From: Okamejei kenojei | Taxonomy: Eukaryota | DNA: 64,000 nucleotides | Direction of reading: 5' to 3' | Assembly: GCA_035221665.1 (NCBI GenBank) | Contig: CM069137.1 | Location: forward strand, 76,818,001-76,882,000 | Part shown: positions 4,045-62,435 of the stretch, one piece after another | Layout of the letters: every line of letters starts with the position of its first letter | Numbering within the stretch: position 1 is the first letter of the stretch | The notes under the pieces: generated by a model | What the model was told of the DNA's origin: nothing | The model's input: the letters and a program-made list of their open reading frames with translations, nothing else | The model's database searches: none | Position numbers and translations under genes: made by a program

Positions 4045-4155
4045 CTGTGAAAATCAGAAAGTGAATCAAGTTAGAAGCAGTGAAGATTAAATGCAGCGTT
4101 TCAGTTCAAAGCTTAATTAGCAAATAACTTGTGTGTTTAAATACATATAATTTAC

Positions 4156-4422: not shown

Positions 4423-4512
4423 CTGTGAAAAATTAATGATTTGAATTAAATTCTACACAAATAAGAAAATAGCTTTAACTGGAGACATTACAGTTTTGGT
4501 CCTTTTACTTGC

Positions 4513-4779
4513 CTTGGATAATTAGTTTGGCACTTGTCCTTTTATCCTCTGCTTCGAAAATGTATTTTCCCTCATCGTCAAATGCAGCTTCTTTAACTAC
4601 TAACATATGCTTCATCCCTTCCACTAACATTTCAAATTTATCATTAGGTTTAATTTCCTCACTTCCTTTTAACCAACGGAAAGTCTTAGCCTCTCTGGAC
4701 ACTTCACATTCAAACTTTGCTTCATCTTTCTCATATATTTTCACATCACTAAGTGGTACAATGAAGGTGAGTGGAATTT
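4513..4779 (-). CDS. TTN: Titin Ig I92 (GC donor)
   Basis: 267 nt, EIPLTFIVPLSDVKIYEKDEAKFECEVSRE...; ends AG|GCAAGT. Confidence 0.92.
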
Positions 4780-4936
4780 CTGGAGGGAAATACAGGAAAT
4801 TAAAAAAATTAGACCGTTTATGTTAAATGCTGAAATCATTCATGCCATTGTTAAGAATATACAAGCTTAAAATACATTTGCTAAAACACACCAAAAGATA
4901 AATATTTGCAGCTCTTTCAAGTGAATTACAAATTAC

Positions 4937-5063
4937 CTTTGACTTTCATATTTGCTGCAGATTTAGCATTTGCAGCCTGGAAAGAAATTTCTCCAGAATC
5001 ACTTAGTTTGCAATTGTAAAGAGTCAGAATGTGTTTTTTGCCATCCTCAACAATCTCGCATTG
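4937..5063 (-). CDS. TTN: Titin Ig I91 (I27), second half
   Basis: QCEIVEDGKKHILTLYNCKLSDSGEISFQAANAKSAANMKVK. Confidence 0.94.
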
Positions 5064-5140
5064 CTGTAAATAAGATAAAGGCATATTTGGATGTCATTTT
5101 TTATATTAAAAATTGTGCAATATTTTCCACCTCAAATACA

Positions 5141-5171
5141 TACACACACGCACACACACACACACACACAC
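5141..5171. repeat. (CA)n microsatellite
   Basis: About 15 CA units. Confidence 0.9.
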
Positions 5172-5326
5172 ATATGTGTAGTATTCCACATTTAATTTAG
5201 TATTTATTAAAATTGTGATTTTATAATTAAAATTAACTAGCACAATTCTTAGGAAAAATTATTCTCGCAGAATTCCAAAAGGGAAAGGAACAATTAAGTT
5301 CAAACCAAATTAAGAAAACAACGTAC

Positions 5327-5466
5327 AGGTGACATGAGCAAAGTTTTGCCGTTCAGCTTCCACTGGAGATGCACATCAGTATCTGAAATCTCCACTTCAA
5401 AGCGGGCTGTTTCACCTTCGAAGATTTCTAGCCCATGCAATGGGCGTACCACCTTGATGATACGAG
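5327..5466 (-). CDS. TTN: Titin Ig I91 (I27), first half
   Basis: (A)RIIKVVRPLHGLEIFEGETARFEVEISDTDVHLQWKLNGKTLLMSP. Confidence 0.94.
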
Positions 5467-5565
5467 CTGTAATCACATTAGTGATAAAAATTGTTGTTTA
5501 AGGTGCACATTTAGAAAGAACCTGATAATGAGATATCTATACATACTCATTCATAAAGTATATAC

Positions 5566-5829
5566 CTTCAATGTTGACAGATGCTTTTGTCTTGTCAGTT
5601 CCACAGTCACATTCATATTCACCCTTGTCCTTATTGTCAACTCTTTTGATTGTTAAAATACAGCGTTTCCCAACAACTTTCATTAAAACTGTTTTTGATA
5701 CTTTGATTTCTTTGCCATCCTTTAGCCATTTAACTGGCACTTCTTTGCTGAGTTCACATTCAAGACTGATGTCATCTCTCTCTACAGCAGTATAATCTTG
5801 TAGTTTCACAGTGAAATATGGGTCAGCAT
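5566..5829 (-). CDS. TTN: Titin Ig I90
   Basis: 264 nt, DADPYFTVKLQDYTAVERDDISLECELSK... Confidence 0.94.
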
Positions 5830-6029
5830 CTGTGGATGAAAGAAAAAGTTACTATTTTGCCTGAAGAAAGATTGTTTCTTTAATAGAATGTACATTGTTA
5901 AGACTTCCCATTGACCATCAACAACATATTTATTTTTTAAATATTTTATCCTCACCATTATGCTAAGACCTGAACACAACACATTAATTAACAGCAGAAT
6001 TCAAAACAATCGCTTGACTTAATTCTCAC

Positions 6030-6296
6030 CTATGACATTCAGATTACATTTCGTGGCGAGCTGGGCAACCTCTGCCCGTATCTGACATGTATCATCACGA
6101 GTTACTTCTTTAATTTCTAACGTGTGCTTCTTCCCATCACTGATAACCAAATTAGTTCTGCTTGGATGAATCTTGATTTCATTCTTGTACCAAGTCACTG
6201 GGAGATTTTCATGTGAGAGTTCAATTTCAAAGTGAGCCGAGTTGCCTTCTTTGACTGTCTGATCTTTTAGTGGTGTAATTAACTTCAATCGCATAC
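6030..6296 (-). CDS. TTN: Titin Ig I89
   Basis: 267 nt, GMRLKLITPLKDQTVKEGNSAHFEIELSHE... Confidence 0.94.
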
Positions 6297-6409
6297 CTGA
6301 AGTATAAAGTCATAATGAGCAGTTATATTACAGTAGTTTAAGATCAAATAATCAATTATTCAAGTCAAATCAAAATCTTGAAAGGTACATGAACTGCTAT
6401 TATTTGCCG

Positions 6410-6745
6410 ATGGTGCAAAAAACTGCAGATGCTGAAAATCTGAAATATAAACAGAAAACGTTGGAAATACCCAACTGGTAAGGCAGTATACATGAAATAA
6501 TAAACAGAGCTAATACTTAGGTCATAGACTCTGTGTCAGAACCGGGCAAAAGAGAAACAGGCTAGTTTTGTTTTGCAGAAAGGATAGGGGAAAAATAAAT
6601 AAGAGAAAGGGAATATCTCTGATTGTATGTCGCTAGGATTGTGATGGGAGAGCAGAGTTTGAGGAAATTAATCAGTTTAGGATTCAATGTTGAGTCCAGG
6701 CTCCAACATTCCTACATGGAAGATGAGACACTGTTCCTCCTTAAC
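6410..6745 (-). mobile_element. Old Penelope-like element remnant
   Basis: Minus-strand EEQCLIFHVGMLEPGLNIES* resembles the PLE GIY-YIG endonuclease C-terminus; followed by decayed pLTR. Confidence 0.65.
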
Positions 6746-6814
6746 CTACAACCTATCTCTATAATAACTGTGCTCCAGGACTCTGCAACTGAAAACAAAC
6801 TTGTTTTCTTTACT

Positions 6815-7075
6815 CACCATAAGACATAGGAGCATAATTAGGCCATTGAGCCCTTCTAGTCTACTCCACCATTTAATCATGGCTGATCTATCTTTCCCTC
6901 TCAGCCACATTCTCCTGCCTTCTCTCTGTAACCATTGACACCCTTACTAATCAAGAATCTACTAATCGCTCTATTAAAAATACAAAATGACTTGGCCACC
7001 ACAGCCATAAGTGGAAATAAGTTGCACAGATTCACCACACTCTATGCTAAAGAAATTTCTCCTCATCTCCTCTAA
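6815..7075 (-). mobile_element. CR1 3' end fragment
   Basis: Homologous to other CR1 3' UTRs in the window. Confidence 0.8.
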
Positions 7076-7179
7076 AAAAACCTTGCCAGTTATTTTAAAA
7101 AAATGTTCATCTTAAACGTTAATTTGGTTTCTCTTTCCATAGCTGCTGCTTAATGTTTCCACATATTTTACTAGTTTGT

Positions 7180-7330
7180 GTATGGTGGAACTGCAGATGC
7201 TGGTTTACACCAAAGATAGACACAAAATGCTTGAGTAACTCAGCGGGACAGAAGAAGGGTCTCGACCGAAATGTCACCCATACCTTCTCTCCAGAGATAC
7301 TCCCTGTCCTGCTGAGTTACTCCAGCAATA
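7180..7330. mobile_element. Penelope-derived inverted pLTR fragment pair
   Basis: gagtaactcagcgggacag ... ctgtcctgctgagttactc inverted; truncated hammerhead core. Confidence 0.65.
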
Positions 7331-7730
7331 TTGAGGGATTACAGCTTTTCGGGGAATATTCTTAAACTTAGGACTATATGTCTCCTCAAATGGAGTTGAA
7401 AGAGAGTATGAGAGTTTTTTTCTCATCTCATGGCCAACATTTTTCCCCTCGATTACCATTAACTCAGCTTATGGTCATGAATTTATAACAATTAATGGGA
7501 ATTTTGTGTTTTTTCTATGTTACTTCTATGACTACTTTAAAATAGTCTTTCAATCACTGAAAGTAAGCGTGCAGGTACAGCAGGCAGTGAAGAAAGCTAA
7601 TGGCATGTTGGAACTTCATAACAAGAGGAGTTGAGTATAGGAACAAAGAGGTCCTTCTGCAGTTGTACAGGGCCCTGGTGAGATCACACCTGGAGTATTG
7701 TGTGCAGTTTTGGTCTCCAAATTTGAGGTA

Positions 7731-10353
7731 TTACTTTATATTACAAAGCCGGAAATTAGTATTCCTAACTGATTAGATTTAATAACTCAATTTGGATTGA
7801 TTTCAGGATATAGAATTAATTGGAATAAAAGTGAACATGCCAATAATGGGAAATAACTCACATATATTACAACAATATCCTTTTAAGATAGCCAATGAAA
7901 AAATAAAATATCTTGGAATTAATGTAACAAAAAGATATGATTCTTTATTTAAATCTAATTTCCCACCCCTATTGAATAAACTACTTAAGAATATCCTATA
8001 TTGGAAAACATTGCCTATTTCAATGCTAGGTAGAATTAATGCGATAAAAATGATTTTTCTTCCTCAATTATTATACCTGTTTCAACTGATCCCGATATAT
8101 CTTCCTAAAAAATGTTTTAAGAAAGTGGACTCTATAGTTACCAACTTTATTTGGAATTATAAGAGCCATAGAATAAATTAAAAATATCTATGTAAATCAA
8201 AAATGAATGGAGGTTTTGCATTGCCTAATTTTATGTTTTATTATTGGGCATTTAAACATAGAAACATAGAAATTTAGAAATTAGGTGCAGGAGTAGGCCA
8301 TTCAGCCCTTCGAGCCTGCACCGCCATTCAATATGATCATGGCTGATCATCCAACTCAGTATCCCGTACCTGCCTTCTCTCCATACCCTCTGATCCCCTT
8401 AGCCACAAGGGCCACATCCAACTCACTCTTAAATATAGCCAATGAACTGGCCTCAACTACCCTCTGTGGCAGAGAGTTCCAGAGACTCACCACTCTCTGT
8501 GTGAAAAAAGTCTTTCTCATCTCGGTCTTAAAGGATTTCCCCCTTATCCTTAAGCTGTGACCCCTTGTCCTGGACTTCCCCAACATCGGGAACAATCTTC
8601 CTGCATCTAGCCTGTCCAACCCCTTAAGAATTTTGTAAGTTTCTATAAGATCCCCTCTCAATCTCCTAAATTCCAGAGAGTATAAACCAAGTCTATCCAG
8701 TCTTTCTTCATAAGACAGTCCTGACATCCCAGGAATCAGTCTGGTGAACCTTCTCTGCACTCCCTCTATGGCAATAATGTCCTTCCTCAGATTTGGAGAC
8801 CAAAACTGTACGCAATACTCCAGGTGTGGTCTCACCAAGACCCTGTACAACTGAAGTAGAACCTCCCTGCTCCTGTACTCAAATCCTTTTGCTATGAAAG
8901 CTAACATACCATTCGCTTTTTTCACTGCCTGCTGCACCTGCATGCCTACTTTCAATGACTAGTGTACCATGACACCCAGGTCTCGCTGCATCTCCCCTTT
9001 TCCTAATCGGCCACCATTTAAATAATAGTCTGCTTTCCTGTTTTTGCCACCAAAGTGGATTTAATATTAAAAATATGAATTTTTGGTTGGAAGAAGTAGA
9101 TAAACAACCAAACTGGTTCAAAATGGAAAAGGATGATTGTTCACCTTTTGAAATTAGCTCGATTTTATTTGCTAATACTAAAATACATTAAAAAAGTTAT
9201 AGAGGAAATCCAATAATAGAAAGTGGCATACGTATTTGGAAACGATTAAATAAAACATTAAAATTAGAAAGTATACCACTGGCTCTTCCCATTGCAAATA
9301 ACAGCACTTTTAAACCTTCAATGATGGATAAAGGTTTTTTAAAATGGAAGAACTATGGAATAAATAAGATGGGTGATCACTACAGGGAAAGTTTATTCCT
9401 TTCATTTCAGGAATTACAACAAAATTATGGATTACGCTCAAAAGAATACTTTAGATATTTACAAATTAGAGCCTATGTTAAATCAAACACACAGGATTTT
9501 AGAAATAGAAAGACAGAACTTTTAGATGAATGTCTAAATAAATATCCGAATACAGAAAATTAATCATATATTTATAATATTTTACTGGAAAATGATTTAC
9601 CAAACTCGGAAATATATAGGCAAGCATGGGAAAACGAATTAGGACAAACAATTAGTGTAGAGGTATGGAATGAAAGTTTACAACATATACACCACTGCTC
9701 ATTAAATGCCAGACACTCCCTGATACAATTTAAAGTTTTACATAGATTACACTTTTCGAAATCCAAATTAAACAGAATTTTTTTCAAATGTTTCTGCTAT
9801 ATGTGATAAATGTCAGCATTTAGAAGCTAATCTAACGCATTCATTCTCAAAATTGTATAAAAATTACTAATTTTTGGATAGAAATTTTTAACATAATCTC
9901 GAAAGTAGTTAATGCATATCTGACTCCAGACTCAAAATTAATCATATTAGGAATAATAGAAACGGATCATCTACTAACAACACAGCAAATAATTTTTATT
10001 GGTTATAGTTTAATAATTGGTAAAAAAACTAATACTAAGATTTTGGAAAGGTCCTACATCCCCCACAATCAAAATGTGGATTACAGAAATGTCGGAGACA
10101 CTTCACCTGGAAAGACTAAGACTTGTCCTTTTGGACAAGCTAGATCAATTCAGAGGAATATGGTCTCCATTTATTGAATACTTAAAGGGTCAAGGAGGTC
10201 CGGTTCGAGGGCCTGACTGAAGCCTGAATAAAGGAATAGATGAAGAACTATATACAAAAGACCAAATATGTTTTTTCTTTTTTGATTGTATGTTATTCCT
10301 TTTTAATATGTATTTACTTCTAATAAAAATATTTTACATAAACAAAAAAAAAA
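7731..10353 (+). mobile_element. 5'-truncated L1/Tx1-clade LINE
   Basis: IKYLGI, WKTLPISMLGRINAIKMIFLPQLLY, CDKC zinc knuckle; AATAAA plus A-tail; TSD caaatttgaggta. Confidence 0.92.
8256..9058 (-). mobile_element. Young CR1 nested inside the L1
   Basis: Intact 199-aa ORF2 C-terminus, (ttctatgt)n tail, atttaa on both flanks. Confidence 0.93.
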
Positions 10354-15880: not shown

Positions 15881-16521
15881 CTGTAGTGAAATAGTAACAT
15901 AATTATCAGTGCATCATTACTGTCTCACAAGTCAATAATTGTAAAGTTTTTTTCATAATTAAGGGGTAAAATGATGAGGCTAAAAAAGTGTATTGCACTT
16001 AAATGCAAAATATATCATATATAATATATTACATATATTACGTATGAAATTATAAATGCCACACAAAAAATAATAAAAAATGATACTTTCATTTTTTTAA
16101 TATACTAAACGGAGGTGTATTCATGCAACCAGAGGAGAATTAACATGAAAAATATGTATTTGGTTAGAATGGGAGAAATATAAAACCATATGATTTGAAT
16201 GGTAATCGGTCTTTGCCTTACGAAATATAATGAAATGATTTAATTAATTCATAATCCTGTTAATAGCAACATTAAAGCAATTTAAGACAATTTATCCTTG
16301 GGAGCCATCAGACCATGTGGACAAAACATAAGCCACAGACATGAATTTACATTTAACACGACAGCCACAATACATCATGCACATAAACACAACTCGCATT
16401 GCCAGGAGAAACAACTACGTTTAACAAAGATGAACACACACAACATAAAGGAACATTTATCCATTTTTCAAAGCACAAGATATGAAAAATCAGTTTGGTA
16501 GGTGTGCAGCAGTCCTCTCAC

Positions 16522-18816
16522 CTCGGCGTCTGTAAGGCTTTGAAGGAGTCTCAACTGCACCTTCATGCAATTCTTCATCATCTTCATACTCCCAATCAGC
16601 TGATGAGCCACCTTCCTCCTCTTCAGTTAATTCCCATTCCCAGTCTTCTTTGCCCTGTAATTCTTCTATTGACATTTCTTCTGATTCTATTTCATAGTCT
16701 TCTGATGATGATATTCTCTCAGACGGAAGTTTTTTCATCTGTACTATCTCCTGCTCTTTATCTGTAGGACTCTCTTTGTCAACTTTAAGATGTGCGGCAT
16801 CTCTGGGAGTGAATATTTTCTTTACAGGAATTTGCTGTGGCTTTTCTTCAGCTGCAACTTCCCTTGAGGGAACCTTCTTCAATTCTAGATGATCTTTTTG
16901 ATCTTCCAAAACTGGAGTTTTTCTCTTTCCAGTTTTATATTGTACTGTATCAGACAAATCCCTGGGAGTCAGTACTTTCATCATTGGTATTTTGTGTTGC
17001 TTTTCTTCCACAGCAACACCTTTTGAAGATACCTTCTTAATTTCAATATGATCTTTCTCAGCTTCTGGTACTGGAGTTTTTCCCTTTCCAGATTTATAAT
17101 GTACTGTATCTGACAAATCCCTGGGAGTCAGTATTTTCTTGATTGGTATTTGATGTGTTTTTTCTTCTGCGGCAGCTTCTCTTGAGGAAACCTTTTTAAA
17201 TTCTATATGATCTTGATCTTTCAAAACGGGAATTCTTTCCTTTCCAGTTTTATAATGTATACTATCAGACGTATCTCTGGGTGTCAGTACTTTCTTCATT
17301 GGTATTTTCTGTGGCTTTTCTTCCACAGCAACACCTTTTGAAGAGATCTTTATTTCAATATGATCTTTCTCTGCTTCTGACACTGGGACATTTTCCTTTC
17401 CAGTTTTAAGGTGTGGAATATCAGGTGTATCTCTTGGGGTCAATACTTTCCTCACAGGTTTTTTCTGTAACTTTTCTTCGACCACAATTTTTTTTGATGG
17501 GACTTTCTTCACCTCTGCACGATCCTGCAGTTCCTCTGGTTCCTGTAAAACTGTTTTTTTATTTTTGTCAATTTTAGTATCTGCGATTGATTGTTCATCT
17601 TTAGAATCTGCTGTAAGCTTTTTTGTCGATTTGTCAATCTTTTGTGGTTCTTTTTCACCTACTGATTTTCCTCTTGAGCGAATATCTTTCAGGTGAACCA
17701 TTTCTTGTTCTTCTTTTGTAATAGGAAATTTCCCTTCACTAATTCTTAAAGGAATTTCATCCTCTTTTTCTTCACAGGGAAATGTCTTAGGAACACCAAT
17801 TTCTTCTGCAGTGAATTCAGGTACTCGTTTTGATGCAGGTGTTTCTAAAACGATCTCCCTAGGTACTCCCTCAATTGGATAAAAATCTATATTTTTCAAT
17901 ATTTCTTTTTTAGGAGATGGTTCACTTCTTATTTTGGGAATACCAATTTTAGTGAGATTAGGTGTTTCTGTTTTCTCCCCAACAGGCTGAGGAAGTGTTC
18001 TACTTATTTTCAATTTCTCATGCTTTTCTTCTTCTTCCTTTTCTACAAATAATTTACTAGGCTTTGTCAATGGTGGGGTCCTCTCCTTCTCTGTATCAGG
18101 AACTTCAGCCTGCCTTATTAATTTTTTCCCTCTATCTCCTATCTTTACAGAAGCTGCTTCCGATCTAGTTACAAACATGGATTTCTCTTCATTTTTTCCA
18201 GCTTTAGGAACATCAACCTTTTCCAGAATCATTTGTTCGTCTGTATCTTTTTCATCAATACATATTTCATTAAGTTTCTTTGACACACCATGTTTTTCTT
18301 TTAAAGCTTCTTTTTTAGGGGTTATCTCAAACTTTTTGAATTGTACCTTATCTGCTTCTTCCTTTTGTCTGGAAACATAATCGAGTTTCTTAGATTGTGC
18401 AACTGGTTCTTTATCCACTTCCTTGAGTGCTACCTTACTCATTATTTTTGGTAATATTTTCAAAGCTTCATCTTTTACAATGGAGATTTCCCCTTTATCT
18501 TTGTCTATTTTATGAATCTCATCAACCACCTGTACAACTACTTCTCTTTTTATTTCTATCTCTTGCAAAATGATACCTGTTGTTTTTGGCAAGGTATAAC
18601 ATTCATCAGCTTCAATTTCTTTAGGACTTTCAGTAGATCTCCTGAGTTTTAATCCTACGTCTTTGTCATCTTCTTTATGAAATCTTGCTTCTTCATCTTT
18701 CTCTTTCTCTGGAATCTTACTACGTTTCTTCAAAATTGAAATTTCTCTTTCTTCTATTTCTTTTGGAATATGCACTGCAGGTTTTAGTTTCAAAGATGAC
18801 TTGGGTTGTTCTGCGG
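16522..18816 (-). CDS. TTN: Titin giant PEVK-like exon (2295 nt, 765 codons)
   Basis: Uninterrupted E/K/P/V-rich ORF bounded by phase-1 tag| and G|gtgag; an alternative in-frame acceptor lies 6 nt inside. Confidence 0.85.
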
Positions 18817-19179
18817 CTACAAAGGTTTCATATTCAATTTAGTGACAAATTAACAAAGAATTTTGCAATCTCCTAAAAGAAGTCTAACATCAAAACAGTC
18901 TCCAAACCACACTGGTTCACCAAATTAAAACAGACCATGAAATCTCTCCATAGTCAACAACATTTCAAAATGAACACATTAACAGAAAGAATCACAAGAC
19001 AAGTTACATAAATTGTAACTACTTAAATGGACTGAAGAGACAATTTGATACAACTAGTACACAACATTTAGGATCCAGGGGAAATCTATATAATTTTAGT
19101 TTTACACACAAAATTGAACAAAGATTGAATATGTTGAATATTTTTAAGTTTAAATACAATAAGGTTTGAGAAATTGTAC

Positions 19180-23732: not shown

Positions 23733-23930
23733 TACAAAAGGCTGGAGTATCTCAGCGAGTCAGACAGCACCTCTGGAGAAAAGGAAGAGGTGACGTTTTG
23801 GATCGAGACCCTTCTTGACCCGTAATGTCACCTCTTCTTTTTCTCTAGAGTGCTGTCTGACCCGTTGAGTTACTCCAGCTTTTTGTGTCTATCTTTGGAT
23901 TAAACCAGCACCTGCAGTTCTTTTCTACAC
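23733..23930. mobile_element. Penelope-derived palindromic insertion
   Basis: Inverted arms of about 80 bp centred near 23815; degenerate hammerhead cores. Confidence 0.7.
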
Positions 23931-24906
23931 ATTATAATTATTTATAATTGGAAATGTTTTTAAAATTTGAAAATAATTTTCACAAAACAGGCTTGTCTTA
24001 TAACTTCAAATATTTAGAAAATCCAACAGGCAAATTTGAAGAATTGAAGTTAGACATTTTCTCTTCACTTCTGGAACAGTATTTCACATTGAAAATGCAC
24101 AGAAGGAATGAAAAAAATATACCCCTCACAGATCCAATGTCAAACAAGGTCGGAACAATTTTAATCCAATTCTTGGTAACCATTGTACCTCAGTGCAGAA
24201 CTCTAATTTATTACCGGTAGATTGTTAATCTATCCAGAATTTACAAAATAATTCTTGTGATTCTAATGGTGAAATTAAGATCATTAGATCTGGAAGCTGA
24301 TTATCAGTGCAAGAAATGGAAAATGGTTTAGTCTAGAGCATAGATATTCATCCATGTCACATAATATCTGTGTGGGATCCTTGTCTACCTGCACTCACCT
24401 GCCCTGGATGTGGAGGGCTGATCTCGCAAACCCACTGCACCTGAGAGTTGGACTAGGAGGTCCAAATGATGAATAGGTCTCAATCAGCATAGACCTGTAG
24501 CCTAGCTTCCACAACATCCCTGACAAGGTTTGGTAGAAGGCAAAGCTATGGTGGAGCTTTGCTTTGTGTCAAAGTTCTCAAACATTATTACAGTTTTTAA
24601 ATACCACTGATATTCAAAGACATTTAATGACAATTAATATTGAGGTAAGTAATTAAAACTGATAGTAACATATTAAAGAATATTGTTAATTAAACACATA
24701 AAAGCACAAAAACAAAGCAAAGGTAAGAGTCGAGCAAATGCTCTGCGAAATGCTTGTATGATATATGTGAGTAAAAATTATCTTTGAAAAGAAGACAAAA
24801 TGAGGAGTGAAATCAGCCATCTGTATAATTGGTGCTCAGCAGTGCTCTGTTATGTGTGCCTGTGGTAGTTTAGTTTTGCCCCACTTTCTTGGTGTGTTGT
24901 TTTTAC

Positions 24907-28695: not shown

Positions 28696-29300
28696 AAACA
28701 TAGAAACATAGAAATTAGGTGCAGGAGTAGGCCATTCAGCCCTTCGAGCCTGCACCGCCATTCAATATGATCATGGCTGATCATCCAACTCAGTATCCCG
28801 TACCTGCCTTCTCTCCATACCCTCTGATCCCCTTAGCCACAAGGGCCACATCCAACTCACTCTTAAATATAGCCAATGAACTGGCCTCAACTACCCTCTG
28901 TGGCAGAGAGTTCCAGAGACTCACCACTCTCTGTGTGAAGAAAGTCTTTCTCATCTCGGTCTTAAAGGATTTCCCCCTTATCCTTAAGCTGTGACCCCTT
29001 GTCCTGGACTTCCCCAACATCGGGAACAATCTTCCTGCATCTAGCCTGTCCAACCCCTTAAGAATTTTGTAAGTTTCTATAAGATCCCCTCTTAATCTCC
29101 TAAATTCCAGAGAGTATAAACCGAGTCTATCCAGTCTTTCTTCATAAGACAGTCCTGACATCCCAGGAATCAGTCTGGTGAACCTTCTCTGCACTCCCTC
29201 TATGGCAATAATGTCCTTCCTCAGATTTGGGCAATAATGTCCTTCCTCAGATTTGGGGCAATAATGTCCTTCCTCAGATTTGGGCAATAATGTCCTTCCT
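28696..29300 (-). mobile_element. Young 5'-truncated CR1
   Basis: Nearly identical to 8256-8795; ctctt on both flanks; empty site at about 35980. Confidence 0.93.
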
Positions 29301-32009: not shown

Positions 32010-32179
32010 CCTTCGAAAGATTTTTATACCCTTAATTGTCCAATAGGCTTTATAACCACAATAACACACAAATATATAAAAATAGACATGGACATAGAAT
32101 GGAATTAATCATTTAAAAAGTGGCAAGGTACATTTCTGACAACATATTTTTAGCGCTTAAATCACAAAAGGAAACCTAC

Positions 32180-32248
32180 CTTTCTCTGGAGCAACCACTT
32201 TCTTTGGTTTCAATGGTTCAGGCGCCGGCTTCTTAGGTACTTCAGGCT
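32180..32248 (-). CDS. TTN: Titin PEVK 69-nt array exon
   Basis: (E)PEVPKKPAPEPLKPKKVVAPEK. Confidence 0.85.
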
Positions 32249-32358
32249 CTTCAAGAAATATTATAAAATTGACATTAAATACAACTACTGTAACAAAACA
32301 TTGCCAATATAAAAAAGAGCACAAATATGCGTAACATTGAATCCCGATTCTAAGTACT

Positions 32359-35856: not shown

Positions 35857-37037
35857 CTTCAAAATATATTATAATTTTAAGATTAATACAACTTCTGTAA
35901 ACTAAAATTATAACTAATATAATGTTAAAAGAGTATAAATGTATGTAATAGGGAATCATGATATCATGATATCTACTACTTGCTCTTCTCTTGTATTGGG
36001 GGGAGGAACTAACTAACCGAGAACAAGTGTGCAGAAAATGTAACATTATTAATCTATGCTTTCATTATTTTACAGGCAACAGATTAAACTTGTTAAAAAC
36101 CAGTGAAAGATGTTGGCCCTACTGACCATGCTTTCTTTATCATCTCCATTCATCTCTACTAATCGTTATTCACTTCTGACTTAGCATTGATATAAATCAT
36201 AATGACACAAGTCAAGTTTGAACATGTTGGTAGATGTTCCATTCTGATAGCTGTATCACCAAAACATATTCCAGATTGCTCACTGCAGCACATTCCTCTT
36301 TCTTGCAAGAAGTGGCAGCATAAAAACAGGTATCAACCCTCATAGAAATGGCAATGCTGACCGCACTACCAGAATTATGAGATGTTTCCTGAATCTCTGG
36401 ATTCCAGTATTGTGGAAAAAGCCATATTCATAACTGTTTAGAGGCAAGGTCACCTTGACTACAAAATCACAGTTGTCCTTGCCCCAATTTGTGGTGGAAA
36501 TTTTGCTTAAATCTGGCCTGTTACCTGGAGTTAAAGTTCCATGGTTAGAGGGAAATGGGAAGAAATGGCTTCCTTTATTTTGGTATATAGTATTAACACA
36601 AGCATGATTTTGTTTAAGTAACAAAAACAGTTTGATAAATAATTTTGGTTAAATTATGATTGCTCCTAAATATTTATTATTCTTTACGCTAATATCAAAT
36701 GATGTTTTACGTTTACTATTTGAATGAAATCAGTGAAGATATAAAGGCATCCAGTCAATGTCAACAATGATCAATCTGAGCGATTTTTGTAAATTCTCCG
36801 ATGACTGCAAATGTTATAATCAGCCAATGGAATAATCCAAAATTTATTTTCCTACCATGTCTCCAGCCCTTCGAAAGATATTTATATCCTTAATTGTCCA
36901 ATAGATTTTATAACAACAATAACACACAAATATATAAAAACAGACATGGACATAGAATGGAATTAATCATTTAAAAAGTGACAAGGTACATTTCTGACAA
37001 CATACTTTTAGCGCTTAAATCTCAAAAGGAAACATAC

Positions 37038-37106
37038 CTTTCTCTGGAACAACCTCTTTCTTTGGTTTCAATGGTTCAGGCGCCGGCTTCTTAGGTACTT
37101 CGGGTT
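37038..37106 (-). CDS. TTN: Titin PEVK 69-nt array exon
   Basis: (E)PEVPKKPAPEPLKPKKEVVPEK. Confidence 0.85.
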
Positions 37107-38367
37107 CTTCAAGAAATATTATAAAATTGATATTAAATACAACTACTGTAACAAAACATAACCAATATAAAAAAGAGCACAAATATGTGTGACATTGAAT
37201 CCTGATTCCAAGTACTTGCCCTTCCCTTGTGCTGAAGGATGAGCCGACTAACCTCTGAGAACGAGTGCGCAGATAATGTAACATTATTAATCTATGCTCA
37301 TTCATTGGGCAACAGATTAAACTTGTCTAAAACTACTAAATGTTGTTGGCCATATTGACCATGCTTTCAACTCCATTGAATTCAACTTAACTCTGCCATT
37401 CATATACTTCAGCTCAGATTCAGCATCAATTTTTGCAGCAAATCTTATATTCAGCCAATGGAATTATCTTGACATTTATTTTCCTATCCTGTCTTCAGCC
37501 CACCTAAAGATTTTTTTATACCCTTGGTAGAGTTTAAAAAAATAATAACATGAATATACACAAACAGACAAGAACATAGAATAGAATTAATTTAAAAAAA
37601 ACCAAGGTATTTATTTCTCACATATTTTTAGCATTTAAATCAACAAAAAGAAATATTATAATTTCAAAATTGAAACAACTATTTAAACCAAAAGTACCAA
37701 TATAACAAATTAAGGTAGCACAAAGACACACAACAGAGAAATGTGATACCACCTAGTTTCCCTTCCCCTGTAAATGTACAGGAGGTGAAATCGACTAGCC
37801 ACTGAGAACCAGAAAATGTTATATTAATCATTATTAATATTATATTAATATAACCAGAAAATGTTATATTAATCATCTGTGTCATCACTTTGCAGCCAAC
37901 AGATTAAACTGTTCTAAACCCAGAATAAAAAATGGTAATGCTTAGCAGGTCAATCAGCATCTCTGAAGAGAGACAGGTCAACAGTCTTTAATTGAACTTT
38001 CACCTATTCTGGAATAATTTCATCAACTTGAAATGCTAACACTTTTCCTCTACCCACCAGTGCCACAAGACCTGCAGTGATTTTGCAATGTTTTCTGTTT
38101 TAAATTCAGTTTTTCAAAATCAGCTTTTCATTTGTCTTTTAATAAATGTTCACTGTTACGTTGTATATTGGTTGCAGATTTTGGGAATGGACCTCATAAT
38201 GTCCATGACTTAAGCAATATAAGATGTGGAAAGTAAATGAAGGGATGCACCTACAGAGACAGCCAGCCCTCAAGGCGCTATCGTACTTAGCACCATTGCA
38301 AAACTCAGAAACAATGCTCACTTGCTTGGGTATGCTGATGATATTCAATTATGATAAAACCACAAGT

Positions 38368-38775
38368 CAACAGACAATAGACAATAGGTGCAGGAGTAGG
38401 CCATTTGGCCCTTCGAGCCAGCACCGCCATCATGGCTGATCATCCCCAATCAGTACCCTGTTCCTGCCTTCTCCGCATATCCCCAGACTCTGCTATTTTT
38501 AAGTCCTATCTAGCTCTCTCTTGAAAGCATCCAGAGAACCCGCCTTCACCGCCCTCTGAGGCAGAGAATTCCACAGACTCACCACTCTCTCTGAGAAAAA
38601 GTGTTTCCTCGTCTCCATTCTAAATGGCTTACTCCTTATTCTTAAACTGTGGCCCCTGGTTCTGGACTCCCCCAACATCGGGAACATGTTTCCTGCCTCT
38701 AGCGTGTCCAAACTCTTAACAATCTTATATGTTTCAATGATATCACCTTTCATCCTTCTAAACCAGAGTGTACAA
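38368..38775 (-). mobile_element. CR1 3' fragment
   Basis: FRRMKGDIIETYKI...FFSERVVSLWNSLP; (caataga)n tail. Confidence 0.88.
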
Positions 38776-38997
38776 GCCCAGCTGCTTTCCCTCTCTCTCC
38801 ATCCCCTTCCTCCCACCAGTCTTACTGTTTCCGACTACATTCTATCTCTGTCCCGCCCACTCCCCTGACATCAGTCTGAAGAAGGGTCTCGACCTGAAAC
38901 GTCACCCATTCCTTCTTTCCAGAGATGCTGCCTGTCCCTCCAGCATTTTGTGTCTACGTTGGATTTAAACCAGCATCTGCAGTTCTTTCCTACACAG
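38776..38997 (+). mobile_element. Penelope-derived pLTR fragment
   Basis: Pyrimidine-rich tract, hammerhead core and the conserved gatgctgcctg...cagcatctgcagttc tail. Confidence 0.7.
38872..38907 (+). ncRNA. Minimal type-I hammerhead ribozyme motif
   Basis: CUGAAGA-A-GGGUCUCGACCU-GAAAC-GUC; all core nucleotides present. Confidence 0.6.
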
Positions 38998-38999
38998 TA

Positions 39000-39578
39000 A
39001 TGGCAAGATAATTACATGCCCACGTGGTGTGAGTCGTTGATGATATTACCTGCCTTTTTGATGCAGCACCTCCTGTAGGTACCTTCGATGTTGGGGAGAT
39101 CAGTACCCGTGATGGATCAGGTGACGTCTACCACTTTCTGCACTGAACTGTGTCACGGTGCAACCAGCCACTATGCTCTCTATCGTATACCTATAGACGT
39201 TCATAAGAGTATTTGCTGACAAACCAAATCTTCTTAATCTTCCAAGGAAGTAGAAGTGGTGATGACCTTTCTATGTGATTGCATCTATGTGCTGGGTCCA
39301 TGACAAAATCTTCAGAGATATCTACTCCCAGGAACCTGAAGCCGTTGACTCTCTTCCATTACCGTCCCGTAGATGAAAACAGGTTCATGGATCCTTGGAT
39401 TTCCCTTCCTGAAGTCAACAATCAAGTCTATGGTCTTGCTAACTCTGAGAGCAAGGTTGTTATTCTAGCACCGTTCAGTCAGGTCATCAATCTCCCTCCA
39501 GTTCTCGGACTTATCGCTACCCATTATTTGTCCTGGAATGGTGGTATCATCGACAAACTTAAAGATTATGTTAATTGA
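39000..39578 (-). mobile_element. Rex1/Babar-type LINE RT fragment
   Basis: Minus-strand IFKFVDDTTI...NNNLALRVSKTIDLIVDFR. Confidence 0.75.
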
Positions 39579-41007
39579 AACATGGTTTCTCCGTGCAATG
39601 CATTCCTCATTCTTGCAGGTGTGACAGCATAAAACCAGGTTTCAAAATTAAGTAGATGAGGGAAAGCATGCCTACATATTTTACTCGAGCAGAGTTAGAG
39701 GTATCTTTAAATTTGCTACCGATGCCACGGTTGTTGGTAGAATAACAGATAACAATGACTCAGAGTACAGGACATTATAAAGAAGCCTGGAAATGAATTT
39801 TAAATGTAGCTCAGAAATTGATAAAGTGAATTTCGATGAGGATACATGAAGGGACTGGACATGGTGAGACACTAGGCAAGTGTGCGTAGGGCAGAACAGA
39901 GGGAGGAAAAAGACAATGCTAGTGTTTGCTCATGAAGAGGATATAACATCACACATTAGTTCAGCTTCAGAGGTGTCGATTAAAGACTTTGGTGGTCAAA
40001 CTACAGAAGGAGATTGATTCATGAACATAACCAAATGTCTGGTGGACTGTTAAAAATTCCATAAAGACAGAATTCAATGTTACAACCCATGGGGGAGTTC
40101 AGCACCAAGTTGGTATCCTGCTCTATCCACAACAGAGCCTACCCTCCAAGTAAGGAAGAAGTTCAAACTCCATTGTTACATTTGTGCAGTATTGGATGGC
40201 TGATCAAGGTCTGAGCCCTGCAGATGAAGCTTACAATGTATCCAATATGGCACTGGATACCACTATTCAAAAGGGTTTCAAAAGTGCTAAAATCATTAAT
40301 GATTTTATTCACCAAAATGCAGGATGACTGAACAAACACATCAGGAAAATAACAGCTGTGCACATCTTCTGCCTTCTCTCGGGACAACAGTATTCCATTC
40401 ATTTGATTTCCGTGTAATAGGTAGTGAGTACGATTGTTTCCTCTTGATGGCAAAAATGTTGTCGGATAACACATTCCAAAATTAATGTTATGAACTACTA
40501 CGAAGAATCTCTCAAAAACTTTAGGCAGCAAAGTTTTGCTTGGTATGCTGTTTCAGATTCTTTGTGGCAGCAAGACTCCAGTTCAGTCCTACGGTATATT
40601 CGTACATAGGATGTGAACTGGGGTCTCAAGCTGTGTCACAAGTGAACAAACCTCATCACGCAGTATGGACATTCCCTTCTTATTTTGATCAAGTATCAGG
40701 ATGGCATAATCATTAATATAACGCCTGATCATTGTTAATAATGATCTGAGTGATTTGTATGAGTTCTCTACTGCCAGCAAATCATATAACCATCCAAAAA
40801 ATAATCCTGACATTTATTTCGCTATCAAATCTCAGGCACATCTACAGGTTTGTTACACCCTGATTGTGCATAGAGTTCATAGCAATAACACATAATTATA
40901 TGAAAATTAACAAGGACATAGAACAGAATTAATAATTTAAAAGTTGCAGGGTCCTTATTTCATTCACATAAACATTTTTAACGATTTATTCAACAAAAGA
41001 AACCTAC

Positions 41008-41076
41008 CTTTTTTTGGCGTAACCTCTTTCTTTGGCTTCAATGTTTCAGGAACTGGCTTCTTAGAAACTTCGGGCA
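41008..41076 (-). CDS. TTN: Titin PEVK 69-nt array exon
   Basis: (V)PEVSKKPVPETLKPKKEVTPKK. Confidence 0.85.
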
Positions 41077-42168
41077 CTTTAAGAAATATTGTAATTTTAA
41101 TTAGCAACTATTGTAACCAAAAGTACTAATATTACAAGTTAAATAGCATACAGAAATGTGACAGAGAAATGCAATACCGACTAGTTTCTCTTATCCTTTA
41201 AATGTACTGGAGGTAAAAGTGGCTAACTACTGAGAATAAGCATGCAGAAGATATTACATTATTAATTTGTGCTCATTCATCACTTTGCAGGCAACAGATT
41301 AAACTGGTTTAAAGCCAGAAAATTACGGGGATATTTAGCAGGTTAGGTAGCATCTGTGAAAAGAGGAAGAGTTAACCTTGTAGTTCCATAATCTTTCATC
41401 AGGATAATAAACTGAATGTTCACCCATGATGATGCAAGTCCATCAACCTGAAACACTAATACTGTTTCTCTACCCATCAATGCTGCTGGACCTTCAGAGA
41501 ATGTGCAGCACCTTGTGTCTTAATTTCAGTTTCCATGAATCTGCAGTTATTGATCTTTCACTGAAATTTCATTGCTACGTTGTTTACTGGCTGCACATAT
41601 TGTAAGCCCCCGTAAGGCAATGCAAGATGTGGAAAGGAAATAAATGCAGTACCCACAGAGATAGCAGGCCTTCAATATATCCATCAGTAGATAGTTGGAA
41701 CAAGTAACAATGGAGACGAATGGTAAAACTATTGCTTTAAGAACATAAAAGCAACACAAGAAAAAAAAGAATAACCCGGAAAGTGGTCTCAACTTCCTTC
41801 AAAGCCCACAAGTCACGTTCACTGCTTACTTCATTAACTTACTTATTGATAATCTCCTTTATATCGGCTATTGGAATGAATTTAGTAAAGTCATAAATAT
41901 AAGTACCGAGTCATTGACAACAATCTCTCCAAGAGATTTTCATAATTTTTATTGCCAGCAAAACTATAATCAACAAAGTAATTTTCCGGCTATATCCCCC
42001 TTAGTACATTCCTACTAAGGTCCATCTAAATGTTTGTTATACTCTTGATTGTGCAACAGAGTTCATAATAATTATTATAACACATAAATACAGCAAAATG
42101 TACAAGGGAATATAATAGAATTAACAATTAAAAATAGCAAGGTACTTAATCAACAAAATATTATCTAC

Positions 42169-42716: not shown

Positions 42717-42806
42717 TAGAAGGGTCTCGACCCGAAACTTCACCCATTCCTTCTCTCCAGAGATGCTGCCTGTCCCCCTGAGTTACTCCAGCATTTTGTA
42801 TCTATT
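42717..42806 (+). mobile_element. Penelope-derived fragment, truncated hammerhead
   Basis: agaagggtctcgacccgaaacttcacccattcc... Confidence 0.65.
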
Positions 42807-48471: not shown

Positions 48472-50533
48472 CTTTAAAGCATATTTTTTTAGGATGAGAT
48501 TCATTTAAAAAAACAATTTAAACACTCATGAAATCAGAATGACATTTAACATACAGGACAAATAGAATTAACACAATACATCAAGCAATATATCGAAGAC
48601 AGTTAATAATAACAGCAATATTATAACTATGCTTGGAAAATTCTGTCAGGCAGGGGTAAAATTATTATGTCACTAATTGAAAACCATCAAAACATGTTTT
48701 CCAGTGCTGTTGCCAATGTCTACAGTATCTCAGAGCATATAGTACACAGGATACATAGAAAATGATGGAAATACTTGGGAGGTCAGGCAGCATCAATGGA
48801 AAGAGAAACAGAATTAATATTCTAGATAGAAGAAATGTCATTAGAACTGAAAAGTACAGATGAAGGAACTTTGACATGAAATGTCTGCTTCTTTTTGCAC
48901 ACATGCTGCCTGACCTGCTGAATATTTCTAGACTTTACTGTTTTTATTTCAGAATAGCAACAACGTTTTTTGTTATACACCAATTCTACTATTAGTTCCT
49001 GTAATCGTGAATGAAATACAGTAACTACTTGTTATCTACAGATTTCCAATTAAAAAAAAAGTATACAGGCAAGCTTGGTTGGGCACTATTGGGAGTATTG
49101 GGAAAGATAGTGTGTTCCTACAGAATCCTCTCCAGTGGTATTCAGTGAATCTTGTTTGCCATGACACAGAGTACATTTTCTGTCTTGTGCAAGCACATAA
49201 TGCAATTTTAAATATTACTTGCTGGTACAAGACAAGTAATATCATGTTGTGGCCCAAATGTTGTTCCTTTGCTGTACTTTTCTATTTTTTATGCAATATC
49301 TAATAAGGGAGATTAAGCACTGGGAAAGGTGTGTAGCCAGAATACGGATTTGTCCCACCAGAGCTAGAGTCAGGGTCAGGATCAGGGTAAAAAAACACAT
49401 TGGGGGGGGGGCAGGAAATGGGTAGGTTTGCAGAGTAAGGACCAGAGTATGGGCCGGTTTACAGCTGAATCTTACATAAGTTGTTAACTGTTCTTTTGTT
49501 CTTGGGGTGTGGGGCTGGAGGGAATATCAACCAACAATGTTGAATTCCTTTGCAGTCTTATTGTCATTGATACCATCTACAGTGGTATCTGCATCTTAGT
49601 AATCCGCATGGAGTCAATTTTCCACTCCAATGCAAATAATCAATGTAATATTTATGTTTGAGAAAAATTCCTGGCACGTTTTCCCAATAACTGCATTTCA
49701 AAAATAGGTCTCCAGCTATGAAATTTTGCTGGTTGTCCTGAGGAAGTGGAAAGAGTAACATAAAAGTCAATCACTTTTAACATTCCTTTCCCAATGCTCA
49801 CTTTCTCTTACACATTTTACAGAACATAGAAATGTATAGCACAAGAACAGGCCCTTCGGCCCACACTGTCTGCATCGAACATGATGCCAATTTTTAATCA
49901 TGTCATCCACCTGCACATGATCCATATCCCACCATTCCCTGCAATCGACATATTTTGTGTTATCTAGAACTATGGAGCATAGTCTAGAGCTTGGTGGGGG
50001 GGTTACAGCATGGTCTCAGGACAAGTGATTGGCCATTTGCAGCTGGGATGTGGAAAAAATGTCTTCACACAAAGGAATAGGGTTATAGATGTTCAGTTGC
50101 TGATATATTCAATGCTTAGGGAGATTTTAGGTACAAAGTGAATTGATGAAATCAAGTAAAAAGTGAGTTAGGTGTCCAATCAGTTATGATCTTAATGAGG
50201 AGCAAGCTCATGGCGAAGTATGAATGATATCGCTTCTGTCACTTTTATTTCTTATGTAACAGCTTTTACATCTATAATACTCACATTAATCATGATTTGG
50301 CTGCACAATATAATTTCACAGTTAAAAGATGTAATTGCAAAATATGAATCAATACTGATTTCGCTGAGTTAACATCTTCTATTAGAAAGAGATGTAAAAC
50401 ACAATTTACAACACCATAAAACCATACAAATAACATTCTGGAAGCCAATTGACATCAACAAGACCCAAAAGACCACAAAAAGAAAACAAAACCATAAAAA
50501 TGGAGGAATGATTTTTCCAAAGTATTTTTATAC

Positions 50534-57680: not shown

Positions 57681-57931
57681 TCAAAATAAGCCATGTTTTG
57701 TTCTATATAACCAATCATAATGCAAGTATCAAATTTATTTTGTGGGCAAGGCCAACAAAATATAGCACAAATACAGAAATAAAATTGGAAAACAGCACAA
57801 ACTGGAAAAAAAAACAAATAGGAAGGTATTGGTTATCTGAAAAGTTTAAAACAAAAATATTTTTCAAGATAATGATCTGATGTTTCTCCAAAGAAACAAT
57901 ACACGTATAAAATGTATGTCTTCTTTTGTAC

Positions 57932-58576
57932 CTTTCAATGGTGCAGTTGTTTCTCTCCGTGTAACTGGTTTCGCTTCTTCAGGAATAAACTCAGGAGGAG
58001 CAATTGCTTTTTTCCGTATAACTGGTTTCACTTCTTCAGGAATAAACTCAGGAGGAGCAATTGCTTCTCTCCGTATAACTGGTTTCACTTCTTCAGGAAT
58101 AAACTCAGGAGGAGCAATTGCTTTTTTCCGTATAACTGGTTTCACTTCTTCAGGAATAAACTCAGGAGGAGCAATTGCTTTTTTCCGTATAACTGGTTTC
58201 ACTTCTTCAGGAATAAACTCAGGAGGAGCAATTGCTTTTTTCCGTATAACTGGTTTCACTTCTTCAGGAATAAACTCAGGAGGAGCAATTGCTTTTTTCC
58301 GTGTAACTGGTTTAGCTTCTTCAGGAATAAACTCAGGAGGAGCAATTGCTTTTTTCCGTGTAACTGGTTTAGCTTCTTCAGGAATAAACTCAGGAGGAGC
58401 AATTGCTTTTTCCCGTGTAACTGGTTTCACTTCTTCAGGAACAAACTCAGGAGGAGCAATTGCTTTTTTCCGTATAACTGGTTTAGCTTCTTCAGGAATG
58501 AACTCAGGAGGAGCAATTGTTTTTTTCCGTGTAACTGGTTCAGCTTCTTCAGGTACATACTCGGGAATCTCAGGCA
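57932..58576 (-). CDS. TTN: Titin PEVK exon with internal 57-bp x11 coding minisatellite
   Basis: 645 nt = 75 + 10x57; unit PEFIPEEVKPVIRKKAIAP. Confidence 0.88.
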
Positions 58577-60055
58577 CTTTAAGAATTTTGGACAAAAGAA
58601 TGTGAAAGATGTAGAATGTTTGAATACGGCAATACACATAACATTAAACACAATGGAGTCACAAATACTTGACACAGTTTACCATTTCATGTTAATCGCA
58701 TAATAATCTAATCTTCTCAATCATTCGATGTTATATATAGATATATCTATCTTACAATGCGTCGTAGATTAAAAGAGCACCAAATACCAAAATTTAGGGA
58801 TATTTTAAATTTCGGCTATCAAGCCATTTGTATCTTTTTAATTCAAATCTCCTCTCCACGTTTTCCAATTCTTCTGGTTGTACTATCTAATTTTATTATG
58901 AACAGTACTCAAATCACCATGTACAGCTATGGGTGTTTTTAGAATCACTTTCCAATAAATCTATCTTGTAAGATCATCATACTTTTAGGATGATATTATG
59001 TTTATGACTGGATATCCTATGCATGCTAGAAGAGTGAAAGCATACCTTCTTGCTAACATTTAACATTTATTTTCAAAATATATTTACAAATGGTAATTCT
59101 GCAGTATTAAAGCTTTCAGGTTTAATATAAAGTGTCACAGAGTGATGGGTATACTCAGATAATTTCCAGGGCATGAAATATCAGAATATTTACATTAATG
59201 TTATTTTTCAAAAATGTAACAGTTTATTAATTTCTACTAGACCAATAATCACATCCATATATTGTCATGTGCATGTATGCTTTGCTAAATGTTTCTAATA
59301 TGCAACTGAATTATTCTTACATTATAAATATTACCATGTGCCACGAGGAAGGAATCATTGTAGAGCAGTCCATTGACCTGATCATCCTGGCATCTACTGA
59401 CTTTATATTTCTTGCTTTGCTATGAGATTGCAGGAGGATGTTATTTCTAGGGGATATTTCCTACCTGAGATTAACTTTTACGAGTATTGTTTAATTTCCC
59501 AGTCATGCTACATTGCATAGGAAATGCCTAATAATGCACTAAATGCATTGAAGGAATTAGTTAATGCAAATTCCAAATAATAGGTCCTTCCATACCTGTC
59601 ATAGTATCTCTGTACTTACAATTTGAATTGTTTCTGTAAAGTGCCAAATATCTGTAAAATTACAGTGAAGGCAATAAAATATCAACCCAAGTTAACCGAT
59701 ATGTAATGTATGAACCCTTTAAATAGTTAAGGTTGGTTTGCGAAAAGTGAGATCCATCTCCTGCTGATTCGCACAGTTTGTGTCACTGGAGTTTGAGATA
59801 TATTAAACTGAAGAAATTAGCTCATAAATAACAGTATAGTTGACAAACAACATCTTACACTAACTTACATAATGAGATGCCCACTGGGCATAAATTTTCC
59901 TTGTAGTTGGTGCTTTATTGTCAATATAATTAAACTGATACAGATGCACAAACAAAGAACGAAACAACATATTGTAAAACAAAATTAATAAATAGCAGAG
60001 CACTGACAATTTGAGGGCTCTAAAAGAGAACAAATGTTTCTACGGTAATGAGAAG

Positions 60056-60335: not shown

Positions 60336-60410
60336 CTTTTATTGGAACAACCTTTTCTTTTTGTGTAACTCGTTTCACTTCTTCAGGAACATATTCTGCA
60401 ACCTCAGGCA
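60336..60410 (-). CDS. TTN: Titin PEVK exon (75 nt)
   Basis: (V)PEVAEYVPEEVKRVTQKEKVVPIK. Confidence 0.82.
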
Positions 60411-61733: not shown

Positions 61734-61830
61734 GCTAGACAAAAATGCTGTAGAAACTCAGCGGGTGAGGCATCATCTATGGAGCGAAGGAATAGGTGCC
61801 GTTTCAGGTCGAGACCCTTCTTCAGACTCA
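61734..61830 (-). mobile_element. Penelope-derived fragment with hammerhead core (GUC->GGC)
   Basis: Minus-strand gagtCTGAAGAagggtctcgacctGAAACggcacc. Confidence 0.7.
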
Positions 61831-62360: not shown

Positions 62361-62435
62361 CTTTTATTGGAGCAACCTTTTCTTTTCGTGAAACTGGCTT
62401 CACTTCTTCAGGAATAAACTCGGGAACACCAGACA
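62361..62435 (-). CDS. TTN: Titin PEVK exon (75 nt)
   Basis: (V)SGVPEFIPEEVKPVSRKEKVAPIK. Confidence 0.82.

Follow-up and report, generated by a model that had tools for sequence, protein, structure and literature searches.

Titin intron and repeat context

The stretch of DNA analysed here (the window, 64,000 nucleotides of Okamejei kenojei contig CM069137.1) carries titin on its minus strand, with I-set domains detected in all three Ig-like open reading frames scanned and titin returned as the best PDB match for both exons compared. Pfam assigned no family to six of the nine open reading frames scanned, the LINE-like ones included. Within the intron between two 69-nt PEVK exons (41008-41076 and 37038-37106), where no further PEVK-like exon was found, the plus strand holds a hammerhead motif inside a short repeat fragment. 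The first-pass annotation had placed this motif in a titin intron and antisense to the gene, and both location and orientation hold; titin pre-mRNA contains only the reverse complement of 38876-38903. The features of the locus are as follows.

37107-41007, minus strand: titin PEVK intron hosting the element
38377-38781, minus strand: 3' fragment of another repeat, in direct contact with the element in head-to-head orientation
38782-38996, plus strand: 215-bp end fragment of a putative Penelope-like element (PLE), truncated at the 5' side and comprising pseudo-LTR and tail
38782-38871, plus strand: pyrimidine-rich upstream part, present in a minority of copies
38871-38876, plus strand: preferred 5' boundary of family copies, reading TCAGTC
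38876-38903, plus strand: hammerhead motif core
38874-38875, plus strand: helix I, 5' strand (GU), 2 bp
38876-38883, plus strand: catalytic box CUGAAGA (C3-A9, 38876-38882) and an extra A38883 between positions 9 and 10.1
38884-38895, plus strand: helix II, 4 bp (38884-38887/38892-38895) with a CUCG loop and a G.U closing pair
38896-38903, plus strand: GAAA box (G12-A14, 38896-38898), palindromic ACGU (38899-38902) replacing helix III, GUC triplet with C17 at 38903
38904-38905, plus strand: helix I, 3' strand (AC)
38909-38922, plus strand: pyrimidine tract ending in CAG, predicted to pair with 38875-38886 and so to sequester the core in this copy
38957-38996, plus strand: optional 40-bp 3' tail ending in the AC-rich TTCCTACACA
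38997-39620, minus strand: decayed LINE reverse-transcriptase fragment with a KFVDDT-like motif

The fragment at 38782-38996 is delimited by homology to six other arms in the window and by contigs from public sequencing runs that span 38783 to 38996, with loose ends behind 38996. It is wedged between the two other repeat fragments (38377-38781 and 38997-39620), no target duplication of 6 bp or more flanks it, and it carries a 10-nt deletion after 38938 relative to the other copies. Pfam returned no family for the repeat at 38377-38781, which we take to be a CR1-type LINE. Elsewhere in the window, two 3' fragments of CR1-type LINEs (8262-8670 and 28696-29104) lie 20 kb apart and are 99% identical, which reflects either very recent insertions or gene conversion.

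Several features of titin itself were also observed. Between 25000 and 42500 there are ten near-identical 69-nt PEVK exons in duplicated exon-plus-intron units, one pair of which (32010-32309 and 36868-37167) is 94% identical, and these duplicated units point to a recent segmental expansion of the titin PEVK region. Furthermore, a long PEVK-like reading frame at 57864-58643 (minus strand) is made of about eleven 57-nt tandem units (a 19-residue repeat), and a 782-codon open frame at 16490-18838 (minus strand), likewise PEVK-like and with internal repeats of about 156-159 nt, represents an unusually large titin exon.

Anatomy of the hammerhead motif

The plus strand from 38872 to 38906 reads cagt CTGAAGA A GGGT-CTCG-ACCT GAAA C G T C acc, and the string cagt-CUGAAGA-A...GAAAC-GUC-acc reported in the first-pass annotation can be read directly from these letters, as can the extra A after A9, the short stem II, the palindromic ACGU in place of stem III and the GUC triplet. 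Stem I, which had been called weak, consists of 2 bp only, with U38875-A38904 and G38874-C38905 followed by an A.C mismatch, and the scissile bond is predicted between 38903 and 38904. The closing pair of stem II is G.U in this copy as opposed to the usual G10.1-C11.1, with C at 38895 accounting for 66-88% of the depth in all four public runs.

The window was scanned with our own implementation of the published minimal hammerhead (min-HHR) descriptor, in which helix I has 3-7 bp and helix II has 3-7 bp with a 3-10-nt loop. This check, which the first-pass annotation had proposed, gave a divided answer: with helix I set to at least 2 bp the motif at 38876-38903 was the sole match in the window, but at the published 3-bp minimum there was none, and the minus strand of the window held no match. 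Over 300 dinucleotide shuffles, the mean number of matches per window was 0.013 with helix I of at least 2 bp, 0.003 at the 3-bp minimum and 0.12 with helix I ignored. A 30-mer derived from the motif matched three times in the window at up to three mismatches (itself included), against 0.00 expected. The looser pattern CTGANGA..GAAAC gave 15 matches in the window against 0.96 expected, an excess that we rejected as evidence for ribozymes because 13 of the 15 are titin coding repeats and no ribozymes. Rfam returned no match in the window at gathering score, and none of the four matches obtained at E up to 10 in 38300-39500 was a hammerhead.

The motif has the core CUGANGA and GAAA-NN-UH, a helix II whose length and loop lie within the descriptor, the extra base and a palindromic 15.2-16.2. 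As previously suggested, its anatomy is that of the minimal type-I hammerheads of PLEs, matching the 2014 consensus CUGANGAH with the extra base and the palindromic 15.2-16.2 included (PMC4209133, Fig. S3). The likeness to metazoan PLE min-HHRs, as described in the part of Cervera and de la Pena (2014, PMC4209133) available to us, extends to CUGANGA with an extra base, helix II, GAAA-CG-UC without helix III, a pyrimidine-rich 5' flank and mostly dispersed single copies. With a helix I of 2 bp the motif falls below the published 3-bp minimum; however, this minimum is a limit of the descriptor rather than a strict limit of the family, because the same paper (PMC4209133) counts five 2-bp motifs as members. 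Those published 2-bp cases have two G-C pairs, in contrast to the U-A and G-C pairs found here, and the 4-bp helix II is short compared with PLE min-HHRs generally (PMC4209133). Measured against the canonical type-I hammerhead of Rfam, the motif lacks helix III, has only 2 bp in helix I and draws no Rfam hammerhead match.

These departures are what could be said for reading the likeness as a coincidence, or as a wholly degenerate vestige carried by a repeat family in which cleavage never occurs: helix I has 2 bp, with no longer variant among the 40 listed of 51 variants, Rfam gives no match, and chance alone yields 0.12 matches per window when helix I is ignored. Nevertheless, features that lie outside the descriptor are also present, namely the extra base after A9, the majority G10.1-C11.1 pair, the palindromic ACGU and the pyrimidine-rich 5' flank, and the element at whose end the motif sits has PLE-type junctions, so we regard this reading as very unlikely.

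Copies in the window and in public sequencing runs

Homology to the 38782-38996 fragment identified seven young arms at five loci in the 64-kb window. In addition to the titin-intron copy described above, these are as follows.

61736-61828, minus strand: copy that has the CUGAAGA core and is sense to titin; host intron flanked by exons 62361-62435 and 60336-60410; GGC as triplet, U16.1 lost; 7-8-bp flank duplication
42718-42806, plus strand: copy without the first core box and without tail; C11.1 kept; 8-bp flank duplication
23734-23931, no single strand: inverted arm pair, one arm with tail and one without; 10-bp AT-rich flank duplication
7177-7327, no single strand: inverted arm pair, one arm with tail and one without, inserted where an older related copy (about 7095-7176) has its 3' end

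Flank duplications of 7-10 bp are thus present at three of the five loci. The full core with an NUH triplet is kept in only one of the seven young arms, that at 38782-38996, and 3.8 kb separate it from the nearest related arm of the same strand, which is without the first core box. The tail is present in three arms and missing from four, the upstream sequence at 38782-38871 was not found elsewhere in the window, and there is no same-strand tandem among the five loci. For the 61828 copy a helix I of 7 of 8 pairs can be drawn, which we rejected as fortuitous as it uses duplicated target DNA. This is the only copy with the CUGAAGA core that lies sense to titin, and its GGC in place of GUC could reflect selection against cutting of the pre-mRNA or chance (n=1).

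Beyond the young arms there were 11 weaker profile matches in the window (E 8e-06 to 7.5, the last three with E > 0.8), which look like older relatives with decayed cores, their decay being too advanced to show covariation of the helices. Some of the older decayed relatives form back-to-back inverted pairs (41303-41549, 37909-38273 and 48748-48944), the first two of which are alike and probably arose by duplication together with the PEVK exon units. At 7095-7327 the young inverted insertion immediately adjoins the 3' terminus of an older, related end fragment, an arrangement that may reflect targeting of the element's own termini.

We then used contigs from 4 of the 23 public sequencing runs listed, aligned to 38740-39050 at 80% likeness. 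The numbers of contigs aligned per run were 153,294, 138,942, 14,369 and 2,341 (at least these numbers in two of the four runs); some derive from the neighbouring repeat, and contig counts are not copy numbers. Depths are summed contig depths, and the contigs, including those labelled "RNA?", show neither strand nor expression. The family may number on the order of 10^5 copies, and the description of an abundant dispersed repeat in the first-pass annotation is supported, with the five loci in the window and the 153,294 contigs from one run marking it as very abundant. The resulting copy density looks far above the 4,000-9,000 motifs of coelacanth and Xenopus given in the available part of PMC4209133, as judged from five loci per 64 kb and the public contigs.

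Depth climbs several-fold at 38872 and drops at 38996, and the pyrimidine-rich upstream part (38782-38871) lies 29- to 116-fold below the core in all four runs, a figure in which divergent subfamilies may be missed. The preferred 5' boundary at 38871-38876 is marked by this step in depth, by loose ends before 38872-38874 and by tandem joints that return to 38871-38876. Loose ends with unrelated AT-rich consensus occur before 38873 and 38874 and behind 38996. Head-to-tail joints run from 38996, 38956 and 38938 to 38871-38876 (for example 38996 to 38872, 38873 or 38875, and 38956 to 38873), those from both 38956 and 38996 matching the arms without and with the tail, and opposite-strand joints occur at 38956/38996 and at 38874/38938. 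By contrast with this 5' edge, no loose end lies at the scissile position 38904 among the 24 listed of 1116 loose ends, and none of the seven young window arms begins at the scissile site. Copy starts that pile up at the 5' edge of the motif and not at the cleavage site fit insertion from uncleaved RNA. Target microhomology may blur the 5' boundary, as at the 61828 copy.

The variants in the public runs, which are unlinked between positions, show that the family majority keeps the core, in agreement with the core conservation expected at first pass. The stem I that had also been sought in the family consensus did not materialise: among the 40 listed of 51 variants none lengthens helix I at 38873-38875/38904-38906 beyond 2 bp, in a set where variants near contig ends are under-counted and changes near the element's 5' end would register as loose ends. 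Joints in which G follows 38903 are a hint of a subfamily whose first pair is U.G. The change G12>A makes up 12-13% of the depth in all four runs, compared with 4-19% at the loop CpG sites, and because the catalytic G12 decays no less than these sites, the dispersed copies look like neutral relics with no sign of selection. The earlier term "ribozyme-bearing family" is therefore apt in that the family bears the motif and its majority keeps the core, but most copies are relics, with one of seven arms complete and G12 decaying like a CpG site.

Cleavage competence of the titin-intron copy

With the hammerhead fold imposed, the titin-intron copy at 37 C exceeds the ensemble energy by 5.4 kcal/mol over 38873-38908 and by 10.2 kcal/mol over 38873-38996, with a predicted hammerhead fraction of 1e-4 to 1e-8. 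Stem II has an energy of -1.7 kcal/mol, compared with -3.4 in a natural copy at 42722-42733, and the G.U at 38895 is a CpG decay product that halves the predicted energy of this stem. The competing helix, between the core and the pyrimidine tract at 38909-38922, has predicted pair probabilities of 0.6-0.85 in 38873-38996, and the two minority variants that this copy carries, at 38895 and 38917, both favour it. As a family-wide switch, this core-sequestering helix is unsupported: stem II does fold in the C11.1 copy (42722-42733), although the first core box is missing there, and a similar but weaker helix is predicted for the 61828 copy. When 38873-38908 was folded as two strands, the structure comprising the ACGU duplex and both stems II with helix I excluded reached -7.5 kcal/mol against a minimum of -19.2, a result that is uninformative on cleavage.

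The hammerhead copy at 38876-38903 is probably inactive, because it has no adjacent partner, its stem II is weakened by CpG decay and its fold is predicted about 10 kcal/mol above the ensemble. Against inactivity stand the presence of all catalytic residues and the occurrence of G.U at 10.1-11.1 in natural min-HHRs, and nearest-neighbour folding ignores tertiary contacts and help from proteins. In the available part of PMC4209133, single min-HHRs showed no cleavage in vitro and dimers cleaved weakly; the published min-HHRs with G.U at 10.1-11.1 there include S. mansoni family 1, with weak cleavage as a dimer. Likewise, eight of nine Xenopus retrozyme dimers showed no cleavage in the portion of bioRxiv 10.64898/2026.07.22.740005 available to us. 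"Intact", as the copy was first described, consequently applies to the letters of the core, but neither to helix I, at 2 bp, nor to the hammerhead fold, which prediction strongly disfavours.

It is extremely improbable that this copy works as a ribozyme on antisense RNA transcribed at the titin locus. It is the sole one of seven young window arms with the full core and the GUC triplet, yet one intact core in seven arms is expected from truncation and a decay of 10-15% per CpG site, and the low predicted hammerhead fraction, the minority variants at 38895 and 38917, the 10-nt deletion and the want of a partner all argue against it.

Probable Penelope-like affinity and proposed origin

From its structure we strongly infer that the 38782-38996 family is Penelope-like. 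Partial tandems, an inverted 5'-adjacent copy and a 30-40-bp tail form the signature of PLEs in the part of PMC8557442 covered, and here two of the five window loci are inverted, joints in the public contigs are of the partial-tandem and inverted kinds, and the optional tail at 38957-38996 is found in three of seven arms. The AT-rich loose ends and the 7-10-bp duplications at three of five loci fit AT-rich targeting as presented in the accessible text of PMC11167929.

No reverse transcriptase/GIY-YIG open reading frame is present in the fragment, and none was linked to the family by pattern and peptide searches. Pattern scans of viral, metagenome and prokaryote collections gave no match in five of six scans, and the single match, in a bacterial MAG, was taken as chance. 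The open frame at 38783-38938, used as a peptide that might be part of a PLE protein, gave one match (E 6e-05) to an unrelated repetitive protein and none of 19 candidates scored, which is weak evidence either way. ARAGORN detected no tRNA genes in the window, a search that decayed tRNA-like heads escape.

The closest likeness is to Poseidon of Anolis carolinensis (PAc), in which, according to the available part of Frangieh et al. (2024, PMC11167929), two 3' ends lie downstream of the hammerhead and delimit an optional tail of 30-40 bp, the end is AC-rich, targets are AT-rich and no ends fall at the cleavage site. In contrast to the present family, for which we found no link to an open reading frame, the PAc open reading frame begins in stem II, and PAc cleavage was demonstrated with protein (PMC11167929, same part). 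In that text, the PAc tail is traced to two internal priming sites, and the Poseidon hammerhead is protein-assisted; insertion in vitro can do without it, the main template being unprocessed RNA.

The family also resembles the non-LTR retrozymes derived from PLE pseudo-LTRs, which the available parts of Cervera and de la Pena (2020, PMC7229834) and Li et al. (2026, bioRxiv 10.64898/2026.07.22.740005) describe as short non-coding units with a type-I hammerhead in tandem and monomer forms. Unlike those described there, the unit here is about 135 bp, its hammerhead is minimal, the window copies are monomers or inverted pairs, and the 38782-38996 copy extends past the unit. Retrozymes are defined by a complete hammerhead in at least two consecutive tandem units; the locus is a monomer, and tandem joints occur elsewhere in the family.

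This likeness raises the alternative that 38873-38996 is an independent non-autonomous element (a non-LTR retrozyme or a MITE-like pseudo-LTR derivative) that has a start of its own at the hammerhead and is amplified via tandem or circular RNA by a PLE protein. The sharp 5' boundary at 38872-38875, the 29- to 116-fold excess of core depth over upstream depth and the head-to-tail joints would be expected of such a unit, and pseudo-LTR-derived retrozymes with a mean consensus of 363 bp are reported for one chondrichthyan genome in the portion of bioRxiv 10.64898/2026.07.22.740005 available. However, the titin-intron copy reaches 90 nt further upstream, into sequence common to other genomic copies (public records from 38783), no same-strand tandem occurs at the five window loci, and rolling-circle monomers should break at the cleavage site, where no break was seen among the window arms or the 24 listed of 1116 loose ends. 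We consider this alternative unlikely; it is largely compatible with an origin as a PLE fragment and differs only in the template RNA.

Our preferred explanation, which we hold to be very probable, is that the titin-intron copy is a solo 5'-truncated PLE end fragment with a minimal type-I hammerhead, a relic in neutral decay and most likely without cutting activity. By analogy with Anolis Poseidon, the element protein would likely nick AT-rich DNA and prime reverse transcription on RNA downstream of the hammerhead, at two candidate priming sites 40 nt apart that would lie about 63 and 103 nt past the scissile bond (the 10 deleted nt counted), with the choice of site yielding copies with or without the 40-bp tail. 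The template would be uncleaved RNA, which fits because none of the seven arms begins at the cleavage site and no loose end lies there among the 24 listed of 1116. Most reverse-transcription products would stop early, many of them at the 5' edge of the hammerhead, and some would fold back to give inverted pairs or tandems. The hammerhead of the parent element would probably cleave after GUC only as an ACGU-paired dimer and/or with the help of the element protein.

The 5' edge lends itself to one further reading. The boundary TCAGTC at 38871-38876 resembles, as we see it, an initiator element (with A38873) and a CAG| splice acceptor, and the tract at 38909-38922 presumably looks like a splice acceptor as well. 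The element RNA might start at A38873, with the hammerhead forming its first 31 nt; such a start would account for the 2-bp length of helix I as well as for the accumulation of 5' ends. The ribozyme would then serve as a conditional switch, dependent on dimers, protein or splicing, and would decap or inactivate the RNA instead of making template. Two splice-acceptor-like sites, at 38874 and 38922, might take part in such a switch, as might the branch-point-like A that directly follows the scissile bond. We consider this decidedly unlikely; if true, host pre-mRNAs could be cut by intact cores in sense orientation or by short tandems, and introns could be purged of such copies. In Drosophila virilis Penelope, an intron end lies at the 5' side of helix I, according to the part of PMC4209133 available.

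With all tested sequence features matching except the length of helix I, the family is a further case of the already described PLE min-HHRs. No chondrichthyans appear in Table S1 or Fig. S3 of PMC4209133, and neither chondrichthyan names nor the motif occur in one supplement file of PMC8557442. In the partial coverage of the literature at hand we found nothing on this particular repeat family, which the supplementary tables of bioRxiv 10.64898/2026.07.22.740005 may include. The single titin-intron copy, antisense to titin and probably inert, matters little. The role of PLE hammerheads is called unclear in the available part of PMC8557442, and the family has modest value for that question; its abundance permits statistics beyond the reach of small families, on 5' ends relative to the scissile bond and on depletion of intact cores on the intron sense strand.

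Finally, the young copies and most of the old ones (near 5822-5857, 7119-7149, 37909-37971, 41303-41395 and 48748-48804) retain, downstream of the hammerhead, a splice-acceptor-like pyrimidine tract with YAG at its end, and the branch-point-like A38904 lies right after the scissile bond, 18 nt upstream of the acceptor-like CAG end of this tract.
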